From the sequence record DRR378314_630: a stretch of DNA of 56,996 nucleotides. One strand, 5' to 3'. The translations under genes and the position numbers were made by a program. The notes under the pieces are model-generated. The model was not told the DNA's origin. It saw only the letters and a list, made by a program, of their open reading frames with translations, and searched no databases. Below, one piece after another: positions 19,342 through 56,996 of the stretch. The stretch's first letter is position 1. Each line of letters opens with the position of its first letter.

Positions 19342-19350
19342 AAGTCCTCC

Positions 19351-23042: not shown

Positions 23043-23059
23043 GATTCTGCCTATTCGTT

Positions 23060-24442: not shown

Positions 24443-24951
24443 GCGTACCCCTCCAACAGACCCGGCAAGTCGTCCGGCGAGACCGGGCCGTAGGTATCGT
24501 CGTCAATCATCAACGCCGGCGCGCCATCGCAGGCGCCCAAACAACACACAGGCAACAGGGTGAAACGGCCGTCTTTGGTGGTCTGGCCGTAATCGATCCC
24601 CAACTGGGTCACCAGCGCCTGTTTCAGTTCATCAAAGCCGGTCAGAAAGCACGAACTGCTGTCGCAAACCAACACCACATGGCGCCCCACCGGCTGGCGA
24701 AAGATCAGACTGTAGAAGGTGGCCACACCTTCCACCGCCGCGGGGCCAATACCCAGAACCCGGGCAATGGCAGGAATGGCGCTATCCGGCACCCAGCCAT
24801 GGCGGCGCTGGACAATCTTCAGAGCCTCAATGCAGGCGGCCTGCGGCTGCTCGTAGTGCCCCATTTCCTCCAACATCGCGGCCTCGTCCTCCGGATGAAG
24901 CTCAAAGCCGTCGGTGCCAATAACCTGGTGTCTCTGTGGTGTCGTTGCCAT
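24439..24951 (-). CDS. nuoE: NADH-quinone oxidoreductase subunit E
   Basis: VATFYS, CDSSSC, CCLGAC. Confidence 0.95.
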
Positions 24952-24953
24952 CG

Positions 24954-26735
24954 TCAGCGGTCCACGTCAGCCATCACAAAATCGATACTGCCCAGGTGGG
25001 CGATCAGGTCCGGCACAAAGCCACCACGCATCACCGCCGGTATCTGCTGCAGGTGCGGAAAACTGGGGGTGCGTATGCGGGTGCGGTAACTCATAGTGTT
25101 GCCGTCGCTGGTCAGGTAATAACTATTGATGCCCTTGGTGGCCTCAATCATCTGCAGGGATTCATTTGGCTCCAGCACCGGGCCCCAGGACACCTGCAGG
25201 AAATGGGTGATCAGCGTCTCGATGTGTTGGAGCATGCGCTCCCGGGGCGGTGGTGTGGTCAGCGGATGATCCGCCTTATAGTCTCCCGCCGGCATGTGAT
25301 TCACACACTGCTGGATAATCCGAAGACTCTGTCGCATCTCATCAATACGCAACTGGCCGCGATCAAACACATCGCCGTTATGGCCCAGCGGCACTTCAAA
25401 ATCGAACTGTTCGTAACCGGAGTATGGCCGCTGTTTGCGAAGGTCGAAGTTGCAGCCAGTGGCCCGCAGGTTAGGCCCGGTCACTCCCCATTCCAGCGCT
25501 TCGGCGGTGTTGAAGGCCGCCACATGGCGAGTACGCTCGCGCACGATGGCGTTTTCCATCATCGCCCGTTCGTATTCCTTCAGGCGCGCGGGCATCCAGT
25601 CCAGAAAGCCCTGCACCAGTTTTTCCCAGCCCTGGGGCAAGTCCTGCATCACGCCCCCAATCCGATACCACGCCGGGTGCATGCGAAAGCCGGTAATGCC
25701 CTCAATCACCTCATAGCCCCGCTGCCGGTCACTGAACGTGTAGAACACGGGAGACATGGCGCCCAGGTCCTGCAGGTAGGTGCCCAGAAACAGCAGGTGA
25801 CTGGTGATGCGAAACATCTCGGCCATCATCACCCTGATGACTTTCACCCGGTCCGGCACGTCAATGCCCGCCAGTTTTTCCGCCGCCAGTACATAGGGCA
25901 GATTGTTCATCACCCCGCCGGTGTAATCGATGCGGTCGGTGTAGGGAATGAAGCTGTGCCAGGACTGGCGCTCGGCCATTTTCTCAGCACCCCGGTGGTG
26001 ATAGCCGATGTCCGGCACGCAGTCGACAATCTCCTCGCCATCCAACTGCAACACGATGCGGAAAGCACCATGAGCGGACGGATGATTAGGGCCCAGGTTC
26101 AGAAACATGAACTCGGCGCCGTCCCGCTCCCGCTGCATGCCCCAGGCTTCCGGCTCGAACCGCATGGCTTCCTGCTCAATGTCCTGTCCCTCCACCGTCA
26201 GCGTGTAGGGATCGAACTCGGTGGCGCGTGCCGGATAGTCCTTGCGCAAGGGGTGGCCAGTCCAGGTCGGTGGCATCAGGATGCGTTCCGGGTGCGGATG
26301 GCCGGCGATGGCGATACCGAACATGTCCAGAATTTCCCGCTCGTACCAGTTGGCATTGGCGAACACTTCGCTGACGGTGGGCACTCGCAGATCGTGCTCT
26401 GACAGTGCCACTTTCAGCATCAGATCTTCATTCCGCTCCACTGACAACAGGTGGTAGAACACCGTGAAATCCGCCTCTGGCAGTCCCTTCCGGTGTCCAC
26501 GAAGGCGCTCGTCGACCGCCGACAGGTCGTACAGCATCGAGAACGGTGCAGGCTGCTGCTTCAGGTGTTTCAGAATGTCCACAATACGCTCGCGAGACAC
26601 CCAGAATACCGGCAAACCGGTCAGCGTGGGCTGCACGTGCAGCACGTCCTCCCGGAAGTGGCCCAGCAGGTTCTCGGTATTGGCGCCTTCAACGCCGGCC
26701 TGTGATCTGTCAACGGTGCCTGTCGTCATGGTCAT
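24954..26735 (-). CDS. nuoC: NADH-quinone oxidoreductase subunit C/D (fused)
   Basis: NuoC motif WYERE..GHPLRKD followed in frame by Nuo[21 protein letters not shown]. Confidence 0.95.
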
Positions 26736-26740
26736 GATCG

Positions 26741-27418
26741 TCAGAGTTTGTCCGGCGTTCGCAATTCCGTGGCCTGGATACGCTGATCCCGCCACTTTTC
26801 CCGCTGAGAGGGCATGTCTGCCCGATAGACGCCCTGATCACCCACCACCCAGGATAAGGGACGGCGTTCCTCCTGAATGGAGTCCTGAAGCAACTGCAAT
26901 CCCTGCAGGAAGGCCTCGGGGCGTGGCGGGCAGCCCGGTACATAGACATCCACGGGCAGAAACTTGTCCACGCCCTGCACCACTGAATAGATGTCGTACA
27001 TGCCGCCGGAGTTGGCGCAGGAGCCCATCGAGATGACCCACTTGGGTTCCAGCATCTGGTCGTAGAGTTGCTGAATGACGGGGGCCATCTTGATGAAACA
27101 GGTGCCGGCAATCACCATGAAATCCGCCTGGCGGGGCGATGCGCGGATCACTTCCGAGCCAAAACGGGCAATATCATGGGGCGCGGTGAAGGCCGTCGTC
27201 ATCTCTACGTAGCAGCAGGACAACCCGAAATTGTAGGGCCACAAGGAATTCTTCCTGCCCCAGTTAACGGCGGAATTGAGAACCTCGCTGAGCTTGCCGG
27301 TGAACACGTTGCGCTCAAGCTGACGTTTGACCGGGTCCTCCGACGGCTCCTGTTGTCGTGGCGGATACCGTCTGTCGCCTTCTGGCGATGGTTCCGCCCT
27401 GGTCAATGTGTAGGACAT
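26741..27418 (-). CDS. nuoB: NADH-quinone oxidoreductase subunit B
   Basis: [26 protein letters not shown]. Confidence 0.95.
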
Positions 27419-43384: not shown

Positions 43385-44395
43385 TTACTGATTACGGTTG
43401 GCGACCGCTTCCTGGGCTTGCTTGACCAGATCCTCGCCAATGCGCGGCGTCCACGTTTCGTATACCGACTTCGTGGCTTTCATGAAGGCATCGCGCTGCT
43501 CGTCAGTCAGTTCGGTGACCTCCACGCCCCGCTCCTTGATCGCAGCCAGGGTCGCATCGATTTCGCTACGGGATTTCTCAATCTCCCACTGGCCGGCATC
43601 AATCGCCGCCTGCTTCAGCAATTCCTGATCTTCCGGGCTGAACTGGTCCCAGATGCTGTTGCTGACCGCGAACACCAGTGGGTCTGCCATGTAGTGCCAG
43701 CGGGTCAGGTATTTCTGGCCAACCTGATCGATACGCGCCACATCAAAGACCGACAGCGGGTTTTCCTGGCCATCAACGGCACCGGTGGTCAGCGCCGGTT
43801 TGGCATCGGCCCAGCTCATCTGGGTGGGGTTGGCGCCCAAGGCCGTAAAGGTATCCTGGAACAGCGGCGAGCCAACAACGCGGATTTTCAGGCCATCCAG
43901 ATCGGCCGGTTCATCAATGGTCAACTTGGAGTTGGAGAGCTCACGGAAGCCATTCTCACCCCAGGCCAGTGGAGTAACACCACGCTTCTTGATCGCTGCA
44001 AAGACAGCCTCGCCAGCTTCGCCCTGGGTGATCGCATCAATGGCAGCATAGTCCGGCATCAGGAAAGGCAGGGAAAACAGGTTCAGTTCCGGCACCTGCG
44101 GCGACCAGTTGATGGTGGAACCCACCGACATATCGATCAGCCCGGAGCGCATGGCCGAAAACTCCTTGGTCTGGTCACCGGAGACCAGTTGGGAGTTGCT
44201 GTAGATCTTCATGTTGATACGCCCATCGGAGCGTTCTTTCACCAGCTCCACCCATTTATCCGCAGCCTGCCCCCATGGAAAGGCAGACGGCAGTACGGTG
44301 GACACCGTGTATTCATCCTTGTAGTCGGCCTGGGTAACGGCACTGAACAGCAGAGTAGCCGCCGCGGCAGCCAGGAGAGAGCGACGTTTCAACAT
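43385..44395 (-). CDS. dctP: TRAP transporter substrate-binding protein
   Basis: ENGFR, DLDGLKIRV, GAVDGQEN. Confidence 0.9.
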   Translation of the reverse strand: MLKRRSLLAAAAATLLFSAVTQADYKDEYTVSTVLPSAFPWGQAADKWVELVKERSDGRINMKIYSNSQLVSGDQTKEFSAMRSGLIDMSVGSTINWSPQVPELNLFSLPFLMPDYAAIDAITQGEAGEAVFAAIKKRGVTPLAWGENGFRELSNSKLTIDEPADLDGLKIRVVGSPLFQDTFTALGANPTQMSWADAKPALTTGAVDGQENPLSVFDVARIDQVGQKYLTRWHYMADPLVFAVSNSIWDQFSPEDQELLKQAAIDAGQWEIEKSRSEIDATLAAIKERGVEVTELTDEQRDAFMKATKSVYETWTPRIGEDLVKQAQEAVANRNQ

Positions 44396-44628
44396 GTGGT
44401 TTTCCTTTTTATTGGGATTGTGACGATCGCTGTGCCGCTGTCAGGCAGCGGACCAACAGGTGATTATAGAAACCGGGCTATCTGCGAGCAATAGACTAAG
44501 GTGGGAGAGACACTCACCTCAATGAAAGCGCAATGCAATACGGCTAAAGGATAATTGGTGCTACCCCAGGCTTTTCGTTTAGCTTGCCAGCAATAAAACA
44601 AGCCGACAAAAAAATAGTGGAGGACAAT

Positions 44629-45936
44629 GTGTTAGACAGGGCATCCAAACCGATGGTCAGCCTGGTAGACAAATACCTACCGGACCCGTATCTGTTCGTC
44701 ATCATTCTGACGCTGTTGTCATTCGTCGCAGCGATGGTATTCCAGAGCCATGGCCCCATGGCAGTGGTGGAAATGTGGGGGGACGGCTTCTGGAACCTGC
44801 TGACTTTCTCAATGCAAATGCTACTGGTGCTGGTCACCGGCTTTATGATGGCAAGCACCCCACTGGTGCGCGGTATCCTGAACCGCATTGCAGGCCTTGC
44901 CAGAACACCTGGCCAAGCCATCGTGCTGGTGACCTTCATCGCGCTGGTCGCCAGTTGGATTAACTGGGGCTTTGGCCTGGTGGTCGGCGCACTGTTCGCC
45001 AAGGCACTCGCCCGTCAAATCCGCGTACATTACCCGTTGCTGATTGCCAGCGCCTATTCCGGGTTCATTGTCTGGCACGGCGGGCTTGCCGGTTCCATCC
45101 CACTGACCATTGCCACCGAAAACCACTTCACAGCCGACGTCATTGGCGTGATCGGTACCAGCGAAACCATCTTCGCCTTCTTCAATCTGGCCATCGTCGC
45201 AGCGCTCTTTATTGTTGTGCCCCTGGTTAACCGCCTGATGCTGCCAGACGAAAGAGACAGCGTGTACGCAGATCCTAAAATTCTGGACGATGAGCCCGAC
45301 ACCTCCGTTGTAATCAATCGCCCGGCCGACTACCTGGAGAACAGCAGAACACTTGCCTGGCTGATCGGATTCAGCGGTATCGCCTTTATCTTCCAATACT
45401 TTATCGATGGCGGCGGGCTGAACCTGAACATCGTGAACTTCATGTTCCTGTTCGTTGCCATCATCCTGCACCAGACTCCCAAACGCCTGCTTGCCAGCCT
45501 GAATGAAGCCGTTAAAGGCGGCGCTGGCATCGTTATCCAGTTTCCGTTCTACGCCGGCATCATGAGCGTGATGACAGCCTCTGGACTGGCAGCGAGTATC
45601 TCAACGGGGTTTGTGTCTATTGCGAGTGCCGAAAGCCTGCCATTCTGGAGCTTTATCAGCGCCGGGGTAGTCAACATCTTCGTGCCGTCCGGCGGTGGCC
45701 AGTGGGCCGTTCAGGCACCGGTTATGCTGCCTGCTGCACAGGAGCTTGGCGCTGACATACCGAGAGTAGCCATGGGCGTCGCCTGGGGCGATGCCTGGAC
45801 CAACCTCCTGCAACCTTTCTGGGCTCTGCCAGTGCTGGCCATTGCCGGGCTGAAAGCCAAGGACATCATGGGCTACTGCCTGATGCTGCTGATCGTCACC
45901 GGCATCATCATCAGCGCAGGCCTGACCTGGCTGTAA
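44629..45936 (+). CDS. atoE: short-chain fatty acid transporter
   Basis: LPDPY, FSMQM, NWGFGLV, PSGGGQWAVQ, QPFWALP. Confidence 0.88.
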   Translation: MLDRASKPMVSLVDKYLPDPYLFVIILTLLSFVAAMVFQSHGPMAVVEMWGDGFWNLLTFSMQMLLVLVTGFMMASTPLVRGILNRIAGLARTPGQAIVLVTFIALVASWINWGFGLVVGALFAKALARQIRVHYPLLIASAYSGFIVWHGGLAGSIPLTIATENHFTADVIGVIGTSETIFAFFNLAIVAALFIVVPLVNRLMLPDERDSVYADPKILDDEPDTSVVINRPADYLENSRTLAWLIGFSGIAFIFQYFIDGGGLNLNIVNFMFLFVAIILHQTPKRLLASLNEAVKGGAGIVIQFPFYAGIMSVMTASGLAASISTGFVSIASAESLPFWSFISAGVVNIFVPSGGGQWAVQAPVMLPAAQELGADIPRVAMGVAWGDAWTNLLQPFWALPVLAIAGLKAKDIMGYCLMLLIVTGIIISAGLTWL

Positions 45937-45954
45937 TTGCCCACCCAAACGCTT

Positions 45955-45990
45955 GGCCGGAGAGTGTCGTTACTCTCCGGCCCTTTCTTT
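45955..45990 (+). terminator. rho-independent terminator after atoE
   Basis: GGCCGGAGAGT..ACTCTCCGGCC 11-bp stem followed by CTTTCTTT. Confidence 0.75.
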
Positions 45991-46023
45991 AGACACCCAT
46001 AAAAGCCACCGAAGCTATGCTCC

Positions 46024-46944
46024 TCAAGTGGCCAACGCGTAATCGATCGCCGCACACACCGCGGTAGCCTGCGCAGCGTTGCATTGCTCGGGAGTGACAC
46101 GGGGGCTGTCGGGATAGACCTCGGTGGTGGTCTTGAAGGGTGCGCTGGTAACACTGGCGCACAGGCCCAACTGCGTTAGCGGATACTGAATGACACCCCG
46201 AGCGGCCACTGGTGAGCCGAAGATCTCTCCGTTTTCATCGGCCGGAGCGATATGAGCAACCTGTTCCACCGCCTTGATCAACGCCTGCTGGAATTCAGGT
46301 TGGGGGTCCTCGCTGTCATCAACCAGATAGAATCCGTCGGGAATCCCGCCCGGTTCGAACGGCTTGCCATCCCGGGCAGCCAGCGCGGGGCGAAACTCGG
46401 TTTCGTCGGTATCCGTGGTCTCATGCAAATCGATATGCAGCAGCACACGATCAACGACGGGCGCGACCAGTCGCATCAGTGCCGCCGATTCCTCTGCCTC
46501 ACCGTCATCGCGGAATGAGCGGTTCGGATCGACCGCGTTGGCGTTCCAGCGATGGATGCGTTCGTACGCCCAAGGGCTGACGCAGGGCGCGACCAGCAAA
46601 TTAACGCGGCCCGCGTAATCCGCCGCATACTGATCAACGAACTCCAGCGCGCCGTGCACGCCGCTGGTTTCATAGCCATGCACCCCGCCCGTTACCAGCA
46701 CGACCGGCAGATTGTCACGCCATTCGCGGCTGCGAATCGCCATCAGCGAATAACGATCGGAGCCATACTCCAAACAGCCATACTCTTCCACGTCGAAGCG
46801 GGAGCGCAGGCGCTCGATCACACTCAACACCTCGGATTCGTAGCTGCGTTGACGGGTCTGCTGCGACAACCACTCGGCGCGTTCTACCTCACCCCAGGGA
46901 ATGCCAGGTGTGCCGATGGGATAGGATGCGGAATCCTTGGTCAT
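46024..46944 (-). CDS. M14-family metallocarboxypeptidase / deacylase-like
   Basis: GGVHGYE, DPNRSF, IDLHET, TTEVYP. Confidence 0.85.
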   Translation of the reverse strand: MTKDSASYPIGTPGIPWGEVERAEWLSQQTRQRSYESEVLSVIERLRSRFDVEEYGCLEYGSDRYSLMAIRSREWRDNLPVVLVTGGVHGYETSGVHGALEFVDQYAADYAGRVNLLVAPCVSPWAYERIHRWNANAVDPNRSFRDDGEAEESAALMRLVAPVVDRVLLHIDLHETTDTDETEFRPALAARDGKPFEPGGIPDGFYLVDDSEDPQPEFQQALIKAVEQVAHIAPADENGEIFGSPVAARGVIQYPLTQLGLCASVTSAPFKTTTEVYPDSPRVTPEQCNAAQATAVCAAIDYALAT

Positions 46945-47038
46945 ACTGCCTTTTCTCCAGTCATAATCGTTGTATACGCCGCTTTTGGAGGGAGGGAAGC
47001 TGCCGAATAGAAGCCCTACACAGCCTTGCCTGCGATCG

Positions 47039-47812
47039 TTAGATATGCTCTTCGGCCCTGAGTGTCAGCACCTCATAACCATCGGAGGTAACGGCCACTG
47101 TATGCTCCCACTGAGCCGACAACTTCTTGTCGCTGGTGACAACGGTCCACCCATCTTTCTTCAACTTAACCTTGGCCTTACCCTGGTTAATCATGGGCTC
47201 TATTGTAAACACCATGCCTTCCTGGAGGACCAACCCTTTTCCCCGCTGGCCATAATGCAGAACCTGTGGCTCTTCATGCATTTCTCGACCAATCCCATGC
47301 CCACAATACTCGCGAACAACTGAATAGCCGTGCTTCTGGGCGTGGCTTTGAATGGCATGGCCGACATCTCCAAGTGTGGCACCAGGCTTTACGCTTCGAA
47401 TCCCTTCCCACATGGCCTCATAGGTCTTGTCGACCAAGCGCCTGGCGACCGGAGTTACGTCGCCGATCATGTACATTTTGCTGGAATCAGCGATAAATCC
47501 GCCCTGCTCTAATGTGATATCAACGTTGATGATATCCCCGGATTTCAGCTTCTGAGCAGTCGAAGGAACGCCGTGGCATACAACCCGGTTTACAGAGCTA
47601 TTCAGAACATACTGATACCCATACTGACCTTTACTCGCAGGGCGAGCGTTCAGCTGATCGACGATGTACCTCTCCGCAAGATCGTTGATATCCATTGTGG
47701 ATACGCCGATCTCGATATGGCCATCGAGGTAGTCGAAAACCGTTGCGAGAAGCCGACCGGACTCCCGCATCACACTCAATTCCTCGGTGCTTTTCCGTTT
47801 TACACTAGCCAC
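47039..47812 (-). CDS. map: type I methionine aminopeptidase
   Basis: CHGVP, NVDIT..DSS, GHGIG..HEEP, TIEPM, AQWEHT. Confidence 0.95.
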   Translation of the reverse strand: MASVKRKSTEELSVMRESGRLLATVFDYLDGHIEIGVSTMDINDLAERYIVDQLNARPASKGQYGYQYVLNSSVNRVVCHGVPSTAQKLKSGDIINVDITLEQGGFIADSSKMYMIGDVTPVARRLVDKTYEAMWEGIRSVKPGATLGDVGHAIQSHAQKHGYSVVREYCGHGIGREMHEEPQVLHYGQRGKGLVLQEGMVFTIEPMINQGKAKVKLKKDGWTVVTSDKKLSAQWEHTVAVTSDGYEVLTLRAEEHI

Positions 47813-48011
47813 CGACAGCCTTCCTTATGTCTACTTCGGCCAGCTTCATTTGGTCGCGCATGATGTCGGAGAACGACATGCTGGGATTCGCCTCGGCAAG
47901 CATGCCAACTTTTATCCAATATTCAGCCTGAGCATTGATAGAGCGAACCATCACGGCACTTGCCTTGCGGATCTCCCCGTGTAATTCGTCGTCAATCTTA
48001 ACAATTCCCAT
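47805..48011 (-). CDS. ParD-like ribbon-helix-helix protein
   Basis: MGIVKI..RSINAQAEYWIKVG; overlaps map start. Confidence 0.8.
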   Translation of the reverse strand: MGIVKIDDELHGEIRKASAVMVRSINAQAEYWIKVGMLAEANPSMSFSDIMRDQMKLAEVDIRKAVGG

Positions 48012-48023
48012 AGCAGCCCTTTA

Positions 48024-48051
48024 ATATACGATTTGTATACGAATCATATAT
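48024..48051. promoter_or_regulatory. palindromic operator upstream of ParD-like gene
   Basis: ATATACGATTTGTA|TACGAATCATATAT, 12/14 inverted match. Confidence 0.6.
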
Positions 48052-48157
48052 CGCGAGCAGCAGCCATTCAAGATGGGTAGGTAGATCTGGCACCCCATTG
48101 CCGAAGTATCAATCGTTCCGTTCTAATCATGGTTCAGGTGGTGCCTTGGAAAGGGGT

Positions 48158-48193
48158 CATCACGCGCTTGTCGCGTGGATGGCGTTATTAGCT
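48158..48193 (-). repeat. degenerate, truncated attC remnant
   Basis: Minus strand AGCTAATAACGCCATCCACGCGACAAGCGCGTGATG resembles an attC left arm and loop; right core missing. Confidence 0.5.
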
Positions 48194-48651
48194 TCCGCTA
48201 TCTCATATTGGCTAAACACCTGGATATTATGCCGACGTAACAACGCAGCCGTAACACCCATGCCAGGAGTTCGGTTACCAGAAAAGCGACCGTCATAGAT
48301 AAATGAACTTCCACAAGAGGGGCTGGACTCGGCCAGTATCGCTATCTCAATACTGAACTTTTTGCACAATTCCAGAGCAATAGATGCACCTGCAATAAAA
48401 TCGTCGGTGACAACATTTCCGCCCTTTTCAATAACGTCGGATTCGCCGTCTAATACATTGTTCCCGCTTCCTTCGACAATCTCCGCAGGTTTCCGTGGGA
48501 TACTCATTCCGGCCTCAACTTCGGGGCATACTGAAACAACCCGGCCTTCAGATATCCACCTCTCAATAAGCTGATCGTTCACCGAAAGGCTCCCGCCATC
48601 GTATCGAACCCTTTTCCCTAGAAGGCAGGCACTCATTAGTACTTTTCTCAA
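48160..48651 (-). CDS. DUF523 / 2-thiouracil desulfurase-like protein (cassette)
   Basis: SACLLG..RYDG, VCPEV, SPSCG; TTG start at 48651 inferred. Confidence 0.85.
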   Translation of the reverse strand: MRKVLMSACLLGKRVRYDGGSLSVNDQLIERWISEGRVVSVCPEVEAGMSIPRKPAEIVEGSGNNVLDGESDVIEKGGNVVTDDFIAGASIALELCKKFSIEIAILAESSPSCGSSFIYDGRFSGNRTPGMGVTAALLRRHNIQVFSQYEIAEANNAIHATSA

Positions 48652-48674
48652 ACGAATAGACCCCAGTATTGTGG

Positions 48675-48724
48675 TGCTAAGTTTTCGAGTATTGGGACCG
48701 GTGCTACCACCGCGGTTGTTAAGC
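48675..48724 (-). repeat. degenerate attC
   Basis: GTTAAGC at 48718-48724 overlapping GNAT stop; mutated core TGCTAAG at 48675. Confidence 0.55.
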
Positions 48725-49210
48725 ATTTGACTCCAGGACATGACCCTGCAGATCAAGTCCATAGAATTTCGTTCCGGGCGTTGGGTTATAAAAATAGGGC
48801 TCGATTTCCTCAAAGCCCATTAACTCATAAAGTTCCTGCGCCTTTTTCGTAGGAGGCACGGCATCCAGAACGACTCGGGTATAACCCATTCCTTTCAGCT
48901 TCAATAGCAGATTGTCCATGAGCACACGTCCGAGTCCCTTACCCTGATATTGTCGACGTACGTACAGACGCTTCACCTCTGCTGTATGATCGTCAATCCG
49001 TCTAAACCCAACACCACCGGCGATGCGAGAATTCTCGATTGCGAATGTATATTGGCCGCTAGGCAGCGAGAACAGTGCTTCGAGCGAGGCCATCTCTCCC
49101 TCAAAATCCTGATAGGAAAGATCGATACCCAGCCAATCTGCATACTCGAGAATAAGCTTTCTTAGCTCATCGCTATCTGCGGGGAAGACCACATCCCTGA
49201 TCATAACCAT
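48719..49210 (-). CDS. GNAT acetyltransferase (cassette)
   Basis: AEVKRLYV..QGKGLGR, LYELMGF. Confidence 0.9.
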   Translation of the reverse strand: MVMIRDVVFPADSDELRKLILEYADWLGIDLSYQDFEGEMASLEALFSLPSGQYTFAIENSRIAGGVGFRRIDDHTAEVKRLYVRRQYQGKGLGRVLMDNLLLKLKGMGYTRVVLDAVPPTKKAQELYELMGFEEIEPYFYNPTPGTKFYGLDLQGHVLESNA

Positions 49211-49232
49211 CTCTTCCGTGCTTTAGACTATT

Positions 49233-49328
49233 GCTCGACACCTTTGTTTGGCAGCGCCCCTGTGGCTTAACGAAAAGGCATTCGGTGGAGGCCGGAGGCC
49301 CAAAACGTACTTGAGCGACCTGCTACAC
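49233..49328 (-). repeat. degenerate attC
   Basis: Shares CGGTGGAGG-CCG-AGGCCC with attC at 52624-52709; cores GCTTAAC (49265) or GCTCGAC (49233) and GCTACAC (49322). Confidence 0.65.
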
Positions 49329-49709
49329 ATTGACTGAATACTTAAGGTCCCGTGCCTCGTCTCCAGTCATACCCCGAAATCCCCAACAATGGGCAGGCTG
49401 CTCCTTAATTGTCACTTCGATATCTACAGGAGATATGCCAACCACAGACTCAATTTTTCTGAAAAGTTCCTTGATCAGAGCCTTTTGGGTCTCTGGAGCC
49501 CTCCCCTGCATCATATTGATCTCTATGGCAGTGTAGGCCGGAGTTCTGCCACCTGGGTAATAAAAATCCTCGGCATCCATAGGGATAAAACGATGAGCCC
49601 GCTTGTCTTCCGGCATTCCGAGTACGGATTGCATGCATCCGTGAATGACCTCAGAGAGCTGAGCTTTGACCGGGTTAAGGTGTTCTCTGATTCCATATAT
49701 GACTATCAC
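49323..49709 (-). CDS. tautomerase-superfamily protein (cassette)
   Basis: MQGRAPETQKALI..WGFRG; GTG start after GGAGG; lacks an N-terminal Pro. Confidence 0.8.
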   Translation of the reverse strand: MIVIYGIREHLNPVKAQLSEVIHGCMQSVLGMPEDKRAHRFIPMDAEDFYYPGGRTPAYTAIEINMMQGRAPETQKALIKELFRKIESVVGISPVDIEVTIKEQPAHCWGFRGMTGDEARDLKYSVNV

Positions 49710-49726
49710 GATGCCTCCTGCAATAT

Positions 49727-49762
49727 GTGTAACGCTCCCATAACTCAATTCGATAATTAAGA
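49727..49762 (-). repeat. collapsed attC remnant
   Basis: GTGTAACGCTCCCATAAC... joined directly to mutated core ATTAAGA; interior missing. Confidence 0.55.
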
Positions 49763-50227
49763 GATTTTATACTCCATGAATACAGCTTCTGGGTGAGGGT
49801 TGAACCGGTACGGCTCGATTTCCTGGAAGCCAAAAGCTTGGTACAACCGCAAGGCCTTATCAAGCTCACGAACGCTGTCGAGTCGCACAGAACCATAACC
49901 CATTTCCTTCGCCTGACAGATCAAAGCCTCAGTCAGAGCTTTACCGATACCCATGCCATGGTAGTCTGGCAAAACATACATCCGCTTCATCTCAGCAACT
50001 CCGGGCTCGAACTCTCTGAGGCCGACAGCACCAACACACACTCCCTCAAAAGAGCTCAGCAATAGCGCACCTTTGGGTGGACCGTACATTATTGGCAGCG
50101 ATGCCAACTCACTGGAAAAGCCCTGAAACTCCAAATCCAGCCCTAGAAATTCTGCATATGCACGAATCAACCTACCACCCAAATCAAACTGTTCGGCGGT
50201 CTCAGCCACCTCAATACTTACGGACAT
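49757..50227 (-). CDS. GNAT acetyltransferase (cassette)
   Basis: AEMKRMYV..HGMGIGK, LYQAFGF. Confidence 0.9.
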   Translation of the reverse strand: MSVSIEVAETAEQFDLGGRLIRAYAEFLGLDLEFQGFSSELASLPIMYGPPKGALLLSSFEGVCVGAVGLREFEPGVAEMKRMYVLPDYHGMGIGKALTEALICQAKEMGYGSVRLDSVRELDKALRLYQAFGFQEIEPYRFNPHPEAVFMEYKIS

Positions 50228-50234
50228 CCTTATC

Positions 50235-50300
50235 TCCTAACGCTGGCTTTTGCGGCTAACACGCAATGCTTCAGCCGCCGCCGTGACAGCGAGGCCAAGG
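50235..50300 (-). repeat. degenerate attC
   Basis: TCCTAACGC.. core and CGCCGTGACAGC arm similar to the intact attCs; end approximate. Confidence 0.55.
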
Positions 50301-50331
50301 GGCTCAAGACAAAGCTCTCGCAGTACTTCAC

Positions 50332-50400
50332 CCGGGTGCCAGAGAGTTCGTGCAAACGAAGACCGGGTAAGTCCATATCTTTAGCATTCGCCGCTGCATC
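50332..50400 (-). pseudogene. HigB/RelE-type toxin internal fragment
   Basis: Minus frame from 50400 reads [23 protein letters not shown]. Confidence 0.7.
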
Positions 50401-50540
50401 GCCTCAACTACTTTCCTACCAACACCTTTACCGTGTTGATCTGGGTGCACGAGTAGCTGATGGTAATACACTACCAAGCTACCGTCTGAAATTGCGTTAC
50501 CGAAGCTAATGAGCTCGCCATTAATCCTCGTGGTTACCAC
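50394..50540 (-). pseudogene. GNAT acetyltransferase internal fragment
   Basis: GNAISDG.LVVYY..LLVHPDQHGKGVGR without normal N- or C-terminus. Confidence 0.75.
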
Positions 50541-50940
50541 TCTCTACCACGCTCAGAAGGTGCAAACTAACAATTGCAAGCGCGGCTACAGCAACATTCG
50601 TTGACACAGGATTGAAGGCTGCCCCAAGCAGCATGGGCTGCATCAGAGCAACAAATGCCAGCAAGCCGATCATTGCAATCAATGTAACGACTATCGGCCA
50701 TCGCTGGCGCCAAAATATCAAGACAACAGCCGACATGGCGATCTCTAGTACGCCACCGATATTTGCCAACTGCAACGCACCTGCCGGTGAAAAGCCCGCT
50801 GCCATCCCCATGGCCAGTTCATCCTCATGCGGATAGAGCAGTTTCGGAATCAAGCCATGATAGAACCAAATAAAGGCGATAGCGCCACGGCAGACTGCAT
50901 AGCTAAAAAATGGGCTACTCGCCCAGGAACCTCGATTCAT
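50521..50940 (-). CDS. DoxX-like membrane protein (cassette, second gene)
   Basis: WFYHGLIPKL, AAFNPV; four TM helices. Confidence 0.75.
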   Translation of the reverse strand: MNRGSWASSPFFSYAVCRGAIAFIWFYHGLIPKLLYPHEDELAMGMAAGFSPAGALQLANIGGVLEIAMSAVVLIFWRQRWPIVVTLIAMIGLLAFVALMQPMLLGAAFNPVSTNVAVAALAIVSLHLLSVVESGNHED

Positions 50941-51352
50941 GATCTTTATCCGGAATCATACAAACGTCATAGCGACCGAAAAGCTTGTAACGATTTAGTG
51001 CGATGCGGTCGTAAAGCCAGTCCCGAATGACTGAGGGGACAACCCAGCCAATACAGAAAAGTGGCCACGGCCATGGTAACCGAAGCATTACTCTGAAAAA
51101 CGCTGAGGACTTCGTGTATATGTTGGGCCCTTCAGCAAGCAGCATGGTTTCGAATGAATCTGTTGGGAAACCATGCGATTCCAGAATGGCCTGGCCTTCA
51201 GGTGACTGAACAGTCGCCAACTTGAATCGACGCTTTCTATCGAACCTGATGAGGAAGCGCGCCCACGCGGAACACAATCGGCACACTCCGTCGAACAGGA
51301 CCACTCGATCCTCGGGGGCAATATCTGGTTTAGATTGCGATTGTTGTTTCAT
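50915..51352 (-). CDS. DCC1-like thiol-disulfide oxidoreductase (cassette)
   Basis: FDGVCRLC, RDWLYDRIALNRYKLFG. Confidence 0.9.
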   Translation of the reverse strand: MKQQSQSKPDIAPEDRVVLFDGVCRLCSAWARFLIRFDRKRRFKLATVQSPEGQAILESHGFPTDSFETMLLAEGPNIYTKSSAFFRVMLRLPWPWPLFCIGWVVPSVIRDWLYDRIALNRYKLFGRYDVCMIPDKDHESRFLGE

Positions 51353-51357
51353 AACTG

Positions 51358-51485
51358 AGGTAACGTCTACTTTAAAGCGCCGGTGCCGAACACAGCGAAG
51401 TACCGGCTGGTTTGGACGGTTGTTTATGTTTCACTCCGCTAAACGCGCCAGAGCATGCGCTTCCGCCAAGAATCTCGGGTTATGT
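51358..51485 (-). repeat. degenerate (possibly composite) attC
   Basis: Cores AGGTAAC (51358) and GTTATGT (51479); internal CCGGTGC..GTACCGG stem. Confidence 0.6.
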
Positions 51486-51489
51486 GATC

Positions 51490-51897
51490 CTAGCTTACTC
51501 TGGCAGGACCTCGAATTCTGGCACGTCTCCAATCGCCCCATCCCAAACCCGCTCTGCTCGATGTAAAGATGTGCGCAGTTGGCAACACAGAGACTTCAGT
51601 GTCCAAACACCCTGCAGGAACAACGAGCAAACCTGCAACCTGAGTGTTTGGCAATGCCGAGCCACACAACTTACAGAAGCTTTTGTTATGACGAGTGCCA
51701 GGGAGCGTAAAGGAAGTCACAGCATCTACACCCGACTGCCAGACCAATTTAGCTGACTGCGAGAATAAATTTGCCGCATGAGCTGATCCCGTATCTTTCT
51801 GACAATACTCACAATGACACAGGTAAAAGCTGTCGAAGTCCCCATGGACCTCAAATTTCACTGTGCCACACAGGCAAGAACCAACATGCTTAGTCAT
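51490..51897 (-). CDS. GFA-family (CENP-V) zinc-binding protein (cassette), probable C-terminal frameshift
   Basis: GSCLCG, CHCEYC, FCKLCGS, PTAHIF. Confidence 0.85.
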   Translation of the reverse strand: MTKHVGSCLCGTVKFEVHGDFDSFYLCHCEYCQKDTGSAHAANLFSQSAKLVWQSGVDAVTSFTLPGTRHNKSFCKLCGSALPNTQVAGLLVVPAGCLDTEVSVLPTAHIFTSSRAGLGWGDWRRARIRGPARVS

Positions 51898-51930
51898 AGG
51901 GTTCCCTGCTATGATCTGTAGGTGACGCAC

Positions 51931-51975
51931 ACATAACGCCCGGCTCACGCGCCGGTTTGAAGCCGTTGGCTATAA
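51931..51975 (-). repeat. attC with internal deletion
   Basis: ACATAACGCCCGGCTCACGCGCCGGTTTGAAGCCG nearly identical to attC at 54976, then jumps to mutated core GCTATAA. Confidence 0.8.
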
Positions 51976-52608
51976 GCCAATGTACCCCAAGGCCACATCG
52001 ACTTCTGTGTAATCCCGAATCGATTTAGGGCTAATAATACGATCCCCGACAGAAACAAAGTTGTAACCCAGAGTTTTGGAAGCTTTCTGATCCCAAGGCC
52101 CATCCCCAAAATAGGTCATGGAATCGTAATGACTCATACCCGCACGCCTTTCGGCCAACCGCATAATCTCTGTTCTGCTGTAGTGATCCGAGGAAGAGGC
52201 CAACGGTATAGAAGGGAAGGTGATACCTGCAGCACCAAGTTTCATCGTCGCGGATTCACTCCAGCCTCCGGTCGCAAAAGCGACTGCAACATTCTTGCGT
52301 GCAACGAGTTGCGATAAAAACTCGTACGCTCCGGGGATTGGGGATACAGCGTGACTCGAAATGTAATCCGTTACTCTGCTCACGAACTCTTCTTTAACGT
52401 CTGCGGTGATCCTCTCGCTGTCACTTTGAAGGCCTAGTCCATCAATCACCTCAGCGAGAATCCCTGAATCAGTCACATGATGATAGCGACTCCAGTCAGG
52501 CACGATCCTTACTCCCAATACGCCCTCGATAGCTGCTTGGAAGCACTCAGTATCGAAGTCGTACGACTCAACCAACGTTCCGTCTATGTCGAATAAGACC
52601 AGATGCAC
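51970..52608 (-). CDS. HAD-family hydrolase (cassette)
   Basis: FDIDGTL, ATGG, FGDGPWD. Confidence 0.9.
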   Translation of the reverse strand: MHLVLFDIDGTLVESYDFDTECFQAAIEGVLGVRIVPDWSRYHHVTDSGILAEVIDGLGLQSDSERITADVKEEFVSRVTDYISSHAVSPIPGAYEFLSQLVARKNVAVAFATGGWSESATMKLGAAGITFPSIPLASSSDHYSRTEIMRLAERRAGMSHYDSMTYFGDGPWDQKASKTLGYNFVSVGDRIISPKSIRDYTEVDVALGYIGL

Positions 52609-52623
52609 AACCTATCCCTTGGT

Positions 52624-52709
52624 TTATAAAGTGAAGCTAAGCGGCGCCCTGACAAGGGCGTCCGGTGGAGGACCGAAGGCCCGGAACAACCTTAATGGCC
52701 TGGTTATGC
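52624..52709 (-). repeat. attC (one core mutated)
   Basis: TTATAAA(52624)...GTTATGC(52703), internal hairpins CGCCCT/AGGGCG. Confidence 0.8.
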
Positions 52710-52717
52710 GGCATGCC

Positions 52718-53122
52718 CTATAGCCCGAGCAACTTTGATGCAATCGAATCAAAATGAATGCCGAGATAGAGCAAAGCTGAAAGATTAGCGAACAAAAGCG
52801 TTGGAACAAGCCAAAGAACTGCTGCAAGGCCCCCTTCGTGTAGGTAGATGAAGATTTGAAACATAAAAAGTCCAAGATAAAGATCTATTCCTATCTGCCT
52901 ACCCCAGTGAAACTCTGCAACCTTGCGAATGGTGCGAAATATGTTTTCCTGGAAACTACAGTAAACGCTATATGCTAGAAACGCTGCGAATGTCACCCAG
53001 ACGACAAGCTTTAAAATTCCCAATTGACCAGTGAATGAGAAAATATCGGGATGCCAATTCAGGTACAGGGCGGCGGCGGCAAATATCGAATAGACCGACC
53101 ATGAAATCGTGTTCGCCGACAT
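52718..53122 (-). CDS. hypothetical membrane protein (cassette)
   Basis: 134 aa, about four TM helices, GGAGG RBS; bounded by GTTATGC/GCATAAC. Confidence 0.75.
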   Translation of the reverse strand: MSANTISWSVYSIFAAAALYLNWHPDIFSFTGQLGILKLVVWVTFAAFLAYSVYCSFQENIFRTIRKVAEFHWGRQIGIDLYLGLFMFQIFIYLHEGGLAAVLWLVPTLLFANLSALLYLGIHFDSIASKLLGL

Positions 53123-53144
53123 TAGGTATATCCTCCTGTGTGCT

Positions 53145-53204
53145 GCATAACGTCAGAGCGCACCGGCGCACTTTAGTGCGTCCGCGTGACGCGACTTGTT
53201 AAAG
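53145..53204 (-). repeat. attC, classical 60-bp type
   Basis: GCATAAC..GCGCAC..GCACT-TT-AGTGC..GTGACGC..GTTAAAG. Confidence 0.92.
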
Positions 53205-53205
53205 C

Positions 53206-54963
53206 TCAAAACCATCTCAGATTCGCGAGAATCTCCTTTTGGTAGATTTCCGCAACTTCTTCAAACCTTTCGTAACTACCACCGAACATGCCTGCGCGTA
53301 TAGGCCCCCAATTATCTTTGAGTTGCGCGGCTTCGCTCCTAAGCTTTTGGAAAGGAGAAATACCAATTCTGCGACCTTTCCAGCCAAACCTCCCAACGGG
53401 TCCCCAGCAGTAACTATCATCTTGCTTTTTCAGGTCGGCCGTCACCAAAGCAAAAAGTATCTCAAACTCATCAAACACTCGTTCATACGCCTTACCTAAG
53501 AAAAACAAGTCATCGAGGCTGGGTTGAAGAAGTTTGTAAAGATATTCACTCATTGGTGTAAAGTTTCGCTCATGCTCGGGTACTCGTTTGAAAACATCAG
53601 AAAGCTCCCCTGCTGCATTGGCAACTTTTTGAACGAATAGTGGTTCACTACTCTCGTGAATTGGCAACCCTAGCTTGGTATAAAATATTGTTGAGAGACT
53701 CTTATAATTTTGCCTTTCAATCGCGGCTATGCCAGCGCTGTAAACCAAGAGTAAAAGGGGATACCACCTGAGATTCACCCAAGCTACAAGACCACCTTGA
53801 CTCTCTAAAAGCCTGTCGCATGATCTAGAGACAATTTTGGAAAGCGATTTCAGTTGATTGTCACTCGCCCAATGTGACAAGCAAGCTACTATTGCGGATA
53901 AGTCTTTGGTGTGGCTCTCATAAGCCGAGATCCGTTCCAATAATTCTTCGTCAGAAAACTTTCCATTCACTGCGAAATTATCTTCGCTTGTAGACGATAG
54001 GAAGCGCCTTACTTCCTCAATAACGTAATCGTGCAACTTTATTTGTGAGCTATCGGATGGAATCAATTCTTTGAGATATTCGACTTTTTCCTCAGTTGTA
54101 TGCGTATCCCTTACTTCATCTGCATATGGTATGGTAATCAGATCATCATTGTCAGTGGTGCCATCATCTGACTCTGACTCCGAGTCAGGGACGGTTATAA
54201 TGAAATCCCCGTCACCATCGAATTGGCCATAATGAGGTGTTTGCTCCGAGTTAATATCATTTGCAACTTTTGAATATACATAAGCCATCAAGCCACTGGC
54301 TGTTATGACCCCATACTCATTCGCCGCTTTGCCTCTTATCCCCTCAATGAAATGTCCCGTGAAAACTGAGTGTCCAGGCAAGGGCCCACCGGAGTCTGCA
54401 ACGACCTCATTTGCCTTTCCTGCGGTAATTACCTGTCTTGAGAAACGCTGGTACATATCTCTGAGAAATCTACTACTTCCGGGCTTCAGATCCCTATGAA
54501 CCGCCAACCCTCCGTAGCATGCGTCCATTACGAATAAAATATGCTTTGCGCGAATTAGCTCAGCATTCCGAGTAAGCTCATCCCACCTTATAAACGTGGA
54601 GAAGTCCTCCAAATCGGCATCATAGGGTACAAGATAACCTACCTCACCTCTGACTCCTGATCTGGTATGGCCGTGACCAGCAAAAAACACAAACAACCTG
54701 TCATCAACTTTGACGTCGTCATTTGAAAACCTCAAGAATGATCTTAATATATTTTCTCGCGTAGCTTCGCTATCAAGAAGATACGTTACATTGCTTTCGT
54801 CGAAACCCAGGTCATTTATTAATACCTCACCAATCTCTTTTGCATCATTAACCGCATATCCAAGTGGCGCTACTCTCTCATAGCGATTGATGCCAATAAC
54901 CAAGGCTCTGCTGGTCTCATATTTTTGCTGAAGAATGAACTTAATATCACGCACTCTCAACAT
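53206..54963 (-). CDS. caspase (C14)-domain protein with uncharacterised C-terminal domain (cassette)
   Basis: ALVIGIN.Y, AVNDA, FFAGHG and MDACYGG catalytic dyad, HSVFT; start approximate. Confidence 0.88.
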   Translation of the reverse strand: MLRVRDIKFILQQKYETSRALVIGINRYERVAPLGYAVNDAKEIGEVLINDLGFDESNVTYLLDSEATRENILRSFLRFSNDDVKVDDRLFVFFAGHGHTRSGVRGEVGYLVPYDADLEDFSTFIRWDELTRNAELIRAKHILFVMDACYGGLAVHRDLKPGSSRFLRDMYQRFSRQVITAGKANEVVADSGGPLPGHSVFTGHFIEGIRGKAANEYGVITASGLMAYVYSKVANDINSEQTPHYGQFDGDGDFIITVPDSESESDDGTTDNDDLITIPYADEVRDTHTTEEKVEYLKELIPSDSSQIKLHDYVIEEVRRFLSSTSEDNFAVNGKFSDEELLERISAYESHTKDLSAIVACLSHWASDNQLKSLSKIVSRSCDRLLESQGGLVAWVNLRWYPLLLLVYSAGIAAIERQNYKSLSTIFYTKLGLPIHESSEPLFVQKVANAAGELSDVFKRVPEHERNFTPMSEYLYKLLQPSLDDLFFLGKAYERVFDEFEILFALVTADLKKQDDSYCWGPVGRFGWKGRRIGISPFQKLRSEAAQLKDNWGPIRAGMFGGSYERFEEVAEIYQKEILANLRWF

Positions 54964-54975
54964 TCCTTTTGTATG

Positions 54976-55053
54976 CTTTAACGCCCGGCTCACGCGCCGA
55001 TTTGGAGCCGCGAAGCGGCGGAAAAACGGTCGCCGTGCAGCCGATTGTTAAGC
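54976..55053 (-). repeat. attC, 78 bp
   Basis: CTTTAACGCCCGGCTCACG..CCGC-GAA-GCGG..CGTGCAGCCGATTGTTAAGC. Confidence 0.93.
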
Positions 55054-55056
55054 CTT

Positions 55057-55905
55057 TTATCGCAATGGCCACACTTTCCTATTTTTTAGGAAGCTGTCAT
55101 CTACAGTATAGGTATAGAAATATTCTTCAATTCCGAAGAAGCCATCCACATTGTGTTGATGGCATGCGGTGCGGGCTATTCGCGATAGAACATCAGAGAG
55201 CCAACGAGCAATTGTTAATGCGTAGTACCTGCCGAGCCTCTGGACAATCTTATTTTGACCCGTTCGGATAGAGGCTGACTTCACATCCTGCATCATCCTT
55301 CCGCTTTCATCAGTTTGCCTCACCATGGAAATAGGGGACATGAAATAATCAATGACTTCGGCATTGGCTTCGACCCGTCGCTGTGACGATTTCCCATAAT
55401 AGTGCTGATGCAATATAGCTTCCGCCACCTCATCCCACCACTTCCCAATTGGCTCTTCACTTGAGAGATTCGGCTCATCTAGAGAAGCGAAATTCGCGTA
55501 CCGCCCTCTCCGAGCATCGGCGAATGCATCTAGGCACTCCAAAATTTTCCTACTAATCTGTGTATCTGGGCGCGTGTACCTGAGGCCCAAATCTCTTGTC
55601 TTGGAAACCGCATCAACTGCATTTGCAAGATCTAGCAACTTATGACCAAATTTACGCACTTCTTTTTCTTCAGGCATTCGGCCGTTATTATTTATCGCGT
55701 AATCGGCCACTAAAATTAACTTTGCGAGCCTTTCCAATCCAACTGAAAGCCCAAAAAACGCAGTGTAATACTCGCCCATTTGGTCAGCATAATTAGCTCT
55801 CCCTAAGGCCGTGGCACCTGAGCCAATCAAGTGCCTCACTAACGCAGCTTCTCGCCCTAGCGCGTGCCATTCTGGTATATCCCATGGATTTATATTTCTG
55901 TCCAT
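55057..55905 (-). CDS. hypothetical protein, HEPN-like motifs (cassette)
   Basis: GLERLAKL..GHKLLDL..GRYANF; ATG at 55905 after GAGG. Confidence 0.7.
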   Translation of the reverse strand: MDRNINPWDIPEWHALGREAALVRHLIGSGATALGRANYADQMGEYYTAFFGLSVGLERLAKLILVADYAINNNGRMPEEKEVRKFGHKLLDLANAVDAVSKTRDLGLRYTRPDTQISRKILECLDAFADARRGRYANFASLDEPNLSSEEPIGKWWDEVAEAILHQHYYGKSSQRRVEANAEVIDYFMSPISMVRQTDESGRMMQDVKSASIRTGQNKIVQRLGRYYALTIARWLSDVLSRIARTACHQHNVDGFFGIEEYFYTYTVDDSFLKNRKVWPLR

Positions 55906-55929
55906 TTCTTCCTCGAAGTTCCATATGAG

Positions 55930-56013
55930 GCTTAACGCTTGCAGCATGCGCGCCCATGAAATGGAGCCAAAGGCGCAATTGAATGGGCGTCGCCGTGCCT
56001 GCGCTTGTTAGAT
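55930..56013 (-). repeat. attC, 84 bp
   Basis: GCTTAACGCTTGCAGCATG..CGCCCAT..ATGGGCG..CGTGCCTGCGCTTGTTAGAT. Confidence 0.93.
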
Positions 56014-56029
56014 ATTTCAGATCCAAGAA

Positions 56030-56932
56030 CTACCATGTGAGGTCGTTCTCCAAAATGAGTGAGGGATCGATAAGGTCAATTCTGCGACAGAATCTATCAA
56101 GGTTTTCGGGGGCCTCGAATTTTATCTTAAAGGAAGGAGGCTCAACGGTGCCCTCCTTAATAGCCTTCGCGTCGATTGAAGCCAGTTGATCCAGAACACT
56201 AAGAAATTCATCGACGCCTTTACGAATTGGCCCGGCCCAGCAATGAGTCATTTCGTGAACTTCTTCAAAAGGCTCTGGCGGCACTATCTTGTGGCAGTCG
56301 ATCTCGAAATCTTTTAAGTGAAGATACAGGGCCGCCAACGCATCCACTTCGACTTGAAGTCGGCTGAGACCGCCTTCGTCTTTTACATCTCCAACGATGT
56401 TGGGAAGATCATGCGTGCAAAGAACGGATACAGAACGCAATAAACGTCTTATCGTATCGGGCCTACGCACTAGCCAGCTAAAATACTCTCGACCGTTTAA
56501 GTGGGTCGGCGATATAAAAGCGGCGCCACGTATCACTCGCTCAAGTTCAATTTCGGCGCGAGAGATACGGTCATCAAGCATTTGGCGGGTAATGGCCATA
56601 TTCCATCCACACCGCTGCTTCCGGAAAATTCGTTTTACCTCGGGAGATTCAGATTTGAGGGCGGCCGGCACATAATCTTTAAAACGGATATATGCCTTAA
56701 AGCCAATGGCTATCAACGAAATGGCCAATATGGGCGCTGCGAAATTTGCTACCGGTGCACGATTTCCAACGGCAGCCATAATCACCTCTGCTAGAGCCCA
56801 CAGCGATATCACGAGCGCTGCAAAAGTTGGGGCTTCAGGGGGCAAAAATCTTAAGTATTCCAGCGCAGCCTCATACCATCGCTTCTCAGAGAACTCGATC
56901 TTGTGCTCGCCTGAATACTGTCCATCACCCAT
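56030..56932 (-). CDS. hypothetical protein with two N-terminal TM helices (cassette)
   Basis: ATG at 56932 after GGAGAG; fills the cassette bounded by GTTAGAT/ATCTAAC. Confidence 0.75.
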   Translation of the reverse strand: MGDGQYSGEHKIEFSEKRWYEAALEYLRFLPPEAPTFAALVISLWALAEVIMAAVGNRAPVANFAAPILAISLIAIGFKAYIRFKDYVPAALKSESPEVKRIFRKQRCGWNMAITRQMLDDRISRAEIELERVIRGAAFISPTHLNGREYFSWLVRRPDTIRRLLRSVSVLCTHDLPNIVGDVKDEGGLSRLQVEVDALAALYLHLKDFEIDCHKIVPPEPFEEVHEMTHCWAGPIRKGVDEFLSVLDQLASIDAKAIKEGTVEPPSFKIKFEAPENLDRFCRRIDLIDPSLILENDLTW

Positions 56933-56944
56933 AGGCTCTCCAGA

Positions 56945-56996
56945 ATCTAACGCCTGGCTCACGCGCCGGTTTGGAGCCGCGAAGCGGCGGAAAATC
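56945..56996 (-). repeat. attC (cut by window edge)
   Basis: ATCTAACGCCTGGCTCACGCGCCGGTTTGGAGCCGCGAAGCGGCGGAAAA nearly identical to attC at 54976. Confidence 0.9.

Follow-up and report, generated by a model that had tools for sequence, protein, structure and literature searches.

The right-hand end of the DNA stretch DRR378314_630 (56,996 nt in all, hereafter the window) carries a run of co-oriented genes that had been read, from the letters alone, as a hidden integron cassette array. Our analysis indicates that the stretch almost certainly holds a true integron cassette array, and comparison with related genomes suggests that this is probably a Marinobacter-like chromosomal satellite array, headed by an attI site without intI and loaded in trans. 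The features are collected in Table 1, with cassettes lettered from A at the right to N at the left; G numbers denote genomes in the genus of a Marinobacter record (191 in total), L numbers loci and X numbers sequencing runs.

Every long open reading frame (ORF) of the array lies on the minus strand and points left, as had been claimed. The five start/end core pairs quoted in the original prediction (GTTAGAT at 56951/56007, GTTATGC at 53151/52703, and those at 55936/55047, 54982/53198 and 51937/51479) proved exact, with 7–9 nt of perfect complementarity, and a sixth, GTTAAGC at 49271/48718, was added to them, giving six pairs in which the start core is complementary to the cassette's own R'' box. 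Between 48001 and 56996 there are seven GTTA-core pairs, compared with a mean of 1.8 in shuffled sequence (4 of 500 shuffles reach seven); one of the seven, 50533/51080, sits within genes and is probably due to chance, and four pairs of the same kind occur in the first 47 kb. The G+C content is 0.58 in the flank and 0.44–0.50 in the array.

To locate attC sites independently of these cores, a covariance model trained on 36 attC sites, all from other genomes, was run over the 57 kb. It returned strong matches at 53145, 54976 and 55930, the three positions at which the original prediction expected them, together with one weak match, the attC of cassette E, and no further site in the window; a run with the default filter added the site cut by the right edge. 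The three intact sites (45–55 bits) have the R'' (RYYYAAC), R' (GTTRRRY) and L boxes of an attC and a bottom-strand hairpin. The ORFs are co-oriented, one or two per attC, with short leaders. Insertion at G/TT, also part of the prediction, is borne out by these matches and by single-cassette movement: the similarity of homologs elsewhere ends at G|TT and their neighbours differ, although this holds more weakly for the DCC1–DoxX unit. Gene order is not fixed across related species, since cassette homologs have other neighbours in other genomes and the arrays of relatives vary.

The extent and condition of the array differ from what had been described. A palindrome was said to separate every cassette; three attC sites are indeed intact, one is internally deleted and one is cut by the edge, but beyond 52710 on the left the sites carry mutations or partial deletions, and because the attC model gives three intact sites plus one cut, the array does not consist of eleven intact sites. 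The count of about 11 cassettes becomes about 13 units plus remnants, and the left limit, placed at 48158, moves to about 46965 because the ParD-like/methionine aminopeptidase pair is also a cassette. Neither this leftmost cassette nor the gradient of decay, from intact at the right to decayed at the left, had been noticed before. Rfam contains no family matching 44000–56996, and a plasmid search yielded one 47-nt attC match and nothing more. Hairpins that a free-end fold scan had placed in the G+C-rich flank were rejected as chance, a stricter scan and the attC model leaving array sites only.

Table 1. Features of the cassette array and its distal neighbour (positions in the window; all on the minus strand).
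Feature	Position	Strand	Evidence and remarks
Edge-cut attC of a cassette upstream of A	56945..56996	-	model 20 bits, 5'-truncated; core GTTAGAT = start of cassette A
Cassette A ORF, 300 aa, helical bundle with two hydrophobic helices predicted at the N terminus	56030..56932	-	
attC of A, intact, 84 nt	55930..56013	-	49 bits; hairpin
Cassette B ORF, 282 aa, HEPN-like fold, nameless widespread family	55057..55905	-	
attC of B, intact, 78 nt	54976..55053	-	55 bits; fold z -3.0
Cassette C ORF, 585 aa, caspase plus PDC-S65-type C-terminal domain	53206..54963	-	Pfam, PADLOC
attC of C, intact, 60 nt	53145..53204	-	45 bits
Cassette D ORF, 134 aa, hydrophobic	52718..53122	-	no family match (Pfam/NCBIfam/PADLOC)
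attC of D, damaged, crossover G to T at 52630	52623..52709	-	no model match
Cassette E ORF, HAD hydrolase	51970..52608	-	Pfam; G168 has a 91% identical cassette flanked by two attC sites
attC of E, damaged	51931..51975	-	24 bits; alignment
Cassette F ORF, GFA family (PF04828)	51490..51897	-	Pfam
Unit G, DCC1-like oxidoreductase (51352-50915) plus DoxX-like (50940-50521)	50521..51352	-	Pfam; start core GTTACCT at 51365
Remnants: GNAT fragment, then fragments of a toxin-antitoxin-like pair	50255..50540	-	Pfam GNAT
Cassette J ORF, GNAT	49757..50227	-	Pfam; intact start core at 50241, attC shrunk to about 39 nt
Cassette K ORF, tautomerase	49323..49709	-	Pfam; start core 49733, attC partly deleted
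Cassette L ORF, GNAT	48719..49210	-	Pfam; paired GTTAAGC cores at 49271/48718 preserved, attC otherwise decayed
Cassette M ORF, 2-thiouracil desulfurase family (PF04463)	48160..48636	-	Pfam; crossover G and attC right arm lost
Cassette N, ParD-like ribbon-helix-helix (48011-47805) plus methionine aminopeptidase (47812-47039)	47039..48011	-	Pfam
M14 peptidase, distal neighbour of the array	46024..46944	-	same neighbour at distal array ends in G014, G090, G180, G064, G083, G029 and G074

At the right-hand end, the edge-cut attC is 96% like the attC stretch 54979–55025. The product of cassette A, with 11 homologs and a structure model of pLDDT 86, has no match in Pfam, NCBIfam or PADLOC; Foldseek gave no fold match, and the structural matches were those of a generic helical bundle (Z up to 8.8), so that the protein appears defence-like by architecture only. 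Cassette B belongs to a family of 550 homologs, from Vibrio and enterobacteria to Klebsiella and rhizobia, for which there is no Pfam model. Its best fold match is the HEPN protein 4nqf (Z 8.9, a modest value for a helical protein; rmsd 4.2, 145 aligned), followed by about ten further HEPN entries at Z 5.7–6.5, with no Foldseek match at E≤0.001 and no Pfam match. The RNase motif of HEPN proteins is RxxxxH; an alignment of the cassette B family inspected by eye has no conserved motif of this form and shows an invariant H88 and R135-Y136 instead. The ESM Atlas placed A and B in unnamed clusters only.

Cassette C encodes a caspase (Peptidase_C14, Pfam E 1e-18) with His and Cys motifs, AGHG and DACYG, both present. 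Its residues 287–578 match the PADLOC candidate PDC-S65 (E 2e-49; model positions 301–586 of 592); the match covers the C-terminal half and not the full length, and since the N-terminal part is a caspase, the protein is a domain variant of PDC-S65. An attC adjoins the cassette C homolog in 8 of 80 metagenome loci (L083–86, L091, L093, L094 and L096) and lies upstream of it in L108; five of these loci had gone into the training of the attC model. Cassette D is found in another context in run X15 (496 nt, 28 differences), and where its attC has lost the crossover G, the homologous cassette start in G168 keeps G|TTATAA.

Further left, the attC of E has changed AAC to AGC and, after the loss of 33 nt of its hairpin between two short direct repeats, measures 45 nt against 78 nt in G168. 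The attC of F (about 51485–51432) is decayed and is followed by a second attC-like remnant (about 51432–51359). An integron-borne Gfa protein, Gfa173, inactivates fosfomycin according to a 2026 preprint, in which only a subset of homologs confer resistance; cassette F is compared with it by the Gfa label only. Unit G recurs as a 98% identical block within the array that follows the gene of a PCuAC copper chaperone in G064, with a weak attC (19 bits) upstream; its status as a cassette is weaker than that of the others because homologs in G016, G066 and G182 have no attC. In the neighbouring remnants, a helix-turn-helix antitoxin is cut by a 325-nt deletion. A longer form exists in G064 and run X5, the G064 copy of the pair having an HTH_3 domain, and we take the pair to be HigBA.

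The remaining decayed cassettes have better preserved counterparts: those of J and L are intact cassettes in G100 and G025, respectively, that of K has an intact attC in G157 and G193 and is the first cassette at orphan attI sites (attI sites without intI) of G090 and G052, and that of M has an intact 48-nt attC in G182. Homologs of E, F, J, K, L and M lie beside intact attC sites in other genomes, with similarity ending at G|TT, and in the window the crossover G has been lost ahead of both E and M. Cassette N has a promoter-like site and palindrome at 48071–48020, an R'' core at 47043–47037 and an attC decayed to about 46965; the promoter scan around it was overall not above chance. Both in L005 and in the complete integron of Alcanivorax DG881, attC sites flank a counterpart of N, and the view of the methionine aminopeptidase gene as a fixed chromosomal anchor was rejected, the gene being a cassette. 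The M14 peptidase gene next to it may be an old cassette itself.

The combination found in N, a ParD-like protein with a second methionine aminopeptidase and a palindromic promoter region (47039–48080; L001–L080), is carried as a cassette by Alcanivorax and Marinobacter, whereas Psychrobacter, Halomonas and enterobacteria have it as an ordinary gene pair. The pair is possibly an autoregulated accessory methionine aminopeptidase. A preprint on an accessory peptide deformylase does not mention it.

Two good attC sites are kept only by cassettes A, B and C. As excision requires two good sites, according to the available text of PMC11023631, and the other cassettes are damaged, only A–C should still move. 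The proximal cassettes A–D match 2 of the 191 genomes, and the distal cassettes E–N match 99. Cassettes A–C, rare in the genus, look like anti-phage genes, whereas common genes for detoxification or housekeeping make up the fixed distal cassettes.

The flank of the array is Marinobacter-like, being matched by 161 of the 191 genomes. The best matches across its TRAP–atoE–M14 region, at 88–90% identity, are G014, G180, G064 and G090, all of which have a short variable run of co-oriented cassette-like genes at the same place and their intI 0.2–0.6 Mb away or on another contig. No IntI was detected by tblastn in the window or in any fetched syntenic interval, and the window has no attI motif. In two of these four relatives, G014 and G090, the upstream end of the array, just after the PCuAC gene, is a recognisable attI-like site that differs by 1 nt in 21–23 from the intI-adjacent attI of G014. 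The same PCuAC–attI head occurs in G027, G055, G113, G118 and G125 and, by eye, in G064 and G141. All 13 of the PCuAC sites found by pattern have different first cassettes, and there is no intI near PCuAC in the 98 genomes with matches to both (13 pairs on the same contig, the nearest 479 kb apart). The PCuAC-headed array of G064 contains two blocks 98% identical to distal cassettes of the window. [quoted passage not shown]

We analysed the distribution of such heads across the genus with a 20-nt attI pattern, which was derived from sites that it then found, so that the counts cover that attI type only. The pattern gave 150 matches in 87 of the 191 genomes, against one for the reversed control, and 42 of these lay beside a listed intI while 108 did not. 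For 126 of the 150 sites the sequence was fetched, as were 40 of the 147 IntI hits with their 3' flank. An upstream IntI match was present at 34 of the fetched sites (5 of them fragments) and absent from at least 900 nt at 88; the other four, with less than 900 nt upstream, were left out of the orphan count. The 88 orphans are spread over 65 genomes, and their upstream contexts fall into at least 19 groups (PCuAC, cobS, pfkB, acyl-CoA synthetase, nrdB, an LPD1 gene, zinc dehydrogenase and others), and 69 of them have same-strand attC sites in the fetched DNA downstream. A full platform of about 273 nt is kept in 59 of the 88, with its left boundary fixed at G|TT, where it begins with a palindromic GGAG|TTATAC motif that is repeated further in. 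A LexA-like box is found at 23 of 29 intI-adjacent sites and at 1 of 93 others. Both an intI-adjacent site and at least one other are present in 27 genomes; across the genus, one integrase gene goes with up to four sites per genome. First cassettes are diverse (106 distinct over 124 sites). In the one orphan platform scanned, no promoter was predicted on the strand of the cassettes, and the promoter scans did not rise above chance. Our literature search, which covered few subscription journals, found no description of orphan, additional or duplicated attI sites.

Several further elements were seen in the related genomes. At the orphan PCuAC site of G141, the first cassette holds a gene of the class A beta-lactamase family (L262:2970-3908). 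Seven attI sites in five genomes (L343, L329, L386, L394, L400, L437 and L359) have as their first cassette one of ~430 nt that contains a LexA-like box and a long inverted repeat but no clear ORF. In five genomes (L286, L334, L393, L395 and L396), an element that carries both a tyrosine recombinase and an IS91-type transposase starts exactly at the attI G|TT. A DUF772-type insertion sequence, presumably IS1182, ends directly at attC crossovers in relatives (L002, L004, L206, L212, L215, L400 and L463). A second IntI clade (L367, L368, L370 and L371), 54–56% identical to the imuAB-linked one, lies beside cobS with another attI type, and this cobS locus is an orphan-platform locus in other genomes.

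The satellite array that we propose would be organised as follows. Beyond the right edge there would be a few more cassettes and then, just after the PCuAC gene, an attI-like site with no intI, as relatives suggest. An SOS-controlled IntI, supplied by the main integron elsewhere on the chromosome, would insert excised cassette circles at the orphan G|TT, and each new insertion would push older cassettes to the left, where point mutations and deletions between short repeats would destroy their attC hairpins and the genes would become fixed. The link between the window and the orphan platforms is drawn from synteny.

The same gradient could be the normal ageing of a complete chromosomal integron whose intI, attI and cassette promoter (Pc) lie just past the right edge. 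The succession of four good attC sites at the right end, compared with one in G014 and three in G090 at the syntenic sites, would fit such an array, as would the IntI match present in 126 of the 191 genomes, and in G074 an intI-headed array ends at the same M14 peptidase. However, none of the four closest flank matches has intI at the locus, orphan arrays may be long and intact too (8 attC matches in G055, more than 10 in G011), and in the 40 fetched intI loci the gene mostly adjoins imuAB or nrdB. We regard a complete integron at this place as rather unlikely.

Less likely still, and in our judgement improbable, is a headless CALIN, that is, a piece cut off by rearrangement or transposition or built up at attG or attC sites, with no attI and no ordered gain. 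Such routes are listed in the available text of Cury et al. 2016 and Loot et al. The locus is split by rearrangement in G064, G180 and G037 have a degenerate PCuAC site, the distal block is found in other contexts, and the DUF772-type transposase ends at attC crossovers in relatives could serve such a route (no such ends were found in the window). Against this, the array is strictly polar, with intact rare cassettes at one end and decayed common ones at the opposite end, an order that calls for insertion time after time at a single end, and an attI-like site is recognisable at the locus in most relatives.

Some observations weigh against the satellite array itself, beginning with the split locus and degenerate heads just mentioned. 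The G074 array that ends at the M14 peptidase has an intact intI head, albeit in a more distant genome (79%). Runs X5 and X15 carry the distal block at 96–98% with other sequence to its left, from which it follows that the block has moved or recombined and that synteny may mislead. In G090, G064 and G180 the intI-adjacent attI is of another type than the orphan, and the differing first cassettes could be what is left after losses from a longer ancestral array. The right edge of the window cuts an attC and the head of the array lies outside it, and among the sequencing runs the best share of the stretch was 0.19, none spanning the array or showing its right-hand continuation. Two further signals from the sequencing runs were set aside: joints between attC sites stem from other cassettes with shared attC sequence and do not point to circles, and RNA contigs of X18 over part of the distal block do not show transcription.

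Evidence bearing on loading in trans comes from genomes with two sites. In G070 the first cassette at the intI site and that at an orphan 380 kb away are identical over the 434 nt to the attC end; the two platforms are only 93% identical, and copies of the cassette in other genomes differ by 11–21% over the first 105 nt. The same identity of first cassettes is seen in G046 over the 105 nt available. The G070 pattern is the trace that would be expected of replicative excision followed by re-insertion at a second attI.

How the orphans arose is a separate matter. One idea, which we put forward tentatively and consider doubtful, is that the integrase copies the attI platform through the G|TT 273 nt upstream of attI, moving platform and first cassettes without intI. 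On that account, a single integrase might, just as doubtfully, both seed and serve daughter landing pads, this array among them. It draws on the fixed left boundary, the missing LexA-like box, the many upstream contexts and G048, whose orphan platform and own intI platform differ at 1 position in 273 nt, the identity starting exactly at TT. However, the three bases (GGA) to the left of the G are equally conserved in orphans and beside intI, which argues against simple insertion at random GWT targets, and of the 18 orphans that could be compared, 11 resemble the same locus in another genome more than the intI platform of their own; the other seven are the opposite. Some copies of the nrdB, imuA and cobS loci have intI and others do not, and five sites keep intI fragments, which shows loss of intI and fits intI loss plus gene conversion. 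G048 and the seven orphans closer to their own platform show copying or conversion within a genome.

The array can be set beside several known systems. The layout of a sedentary chromosomal integron, as given in the available text of PMC11023631, is intI–Pint–attI–Pc–array, with Pint the integrase promoter. The Marinobacter integron at imuAB/nrdB shares with the present arrays its attC family, attI type, insertion at position 1 and some cassettes; it differs in that one integrase gene stands against up to four sites of the attI type and in that the orphan heads have no LexA-like box. In the accessible part of Cury et al. 2016 (PMC4889954), a CALIN holds two or more attC sites and no intI within 4 kb (10 kb in a relaxed form), four origins are given, attI was searched for classes 1–3 only, and it is speculated that an integrase elsewhere can mobilise CALIN cassettes. 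[quoted passage not shown] Unlike the CALINs of that text, which are treated as donors, the ~273-nt attI platform heads of the relatives appear to receive cassettes.

Single attC sites lacking integrase (SALIN) arise at attG, a short GWT motif marked by scattered single cassettes, in the part of Loot et al. available to us (bioRxiv 10.1101/2022.09.11.507474). IntI acting in trans away from the integron, as proposed for the present arrays, and loss of the attC hairpin by slippage are common to both systems, whereas the ordered arrays described here begin with a long conserved platform and lie at recurrent loci. Xanthomonas CALINs (bioRxiv 10.1101/2025.06.18.660453) also occupy few recurrent chromosomal loci away from intI, but they are taken as traces of ancestral activity, and attI heads are not mentioned in the accessible text. 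Anti-phage cassettes have homologs in Marinobacter arrays and are, like those here, single-gene with HEPN-like (Esos) or transmembrane (Brigantia) products, while the portions seen of these preprints include no caspase cassette (bioRxiv 10.1101/2024.07.02.601686 and 10.1101/2024.07.02.601719). The likening of cassette B to Esos, a V. cholerae defence cassette in the same partial texts, is made by the HEPN-like fold label alone and not by sequence.

Elsewhere in the window, positions 251–4675 hold a phosphite uptake/oxidation-like cluster with an ABC transporter, a dehydrogenase and a LysR regulator, which from the translations we take to be ptxABCDE, while on the minus strand at 13070–27418 there is an operon that, judged by eye, resembles that of NADH dehydrogenase I (nuo). 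Outside it, a Marinobacter shengliensis conjugative plasmid has attC-bounded genes beside its transfer region and no annotated integron integrase (L161:14183-15055).

The array in the window is itself an ordinary element, yet it is a clear natural record of cassette fixation by attC loss. Across the genus, orphan attI heads outnumber the intI-adjacent ones of the same type and stand at the head of attC arrays. CALINs are common, their origin and activity are debated, and standard tools are blind to attI sites outside classes 1–3. If the orphan sites are active, many CALINs taken for dead would be extra first positions served by one integrase, and more cassettes, including defence and resistance genes, would be open to expression or shuffling.

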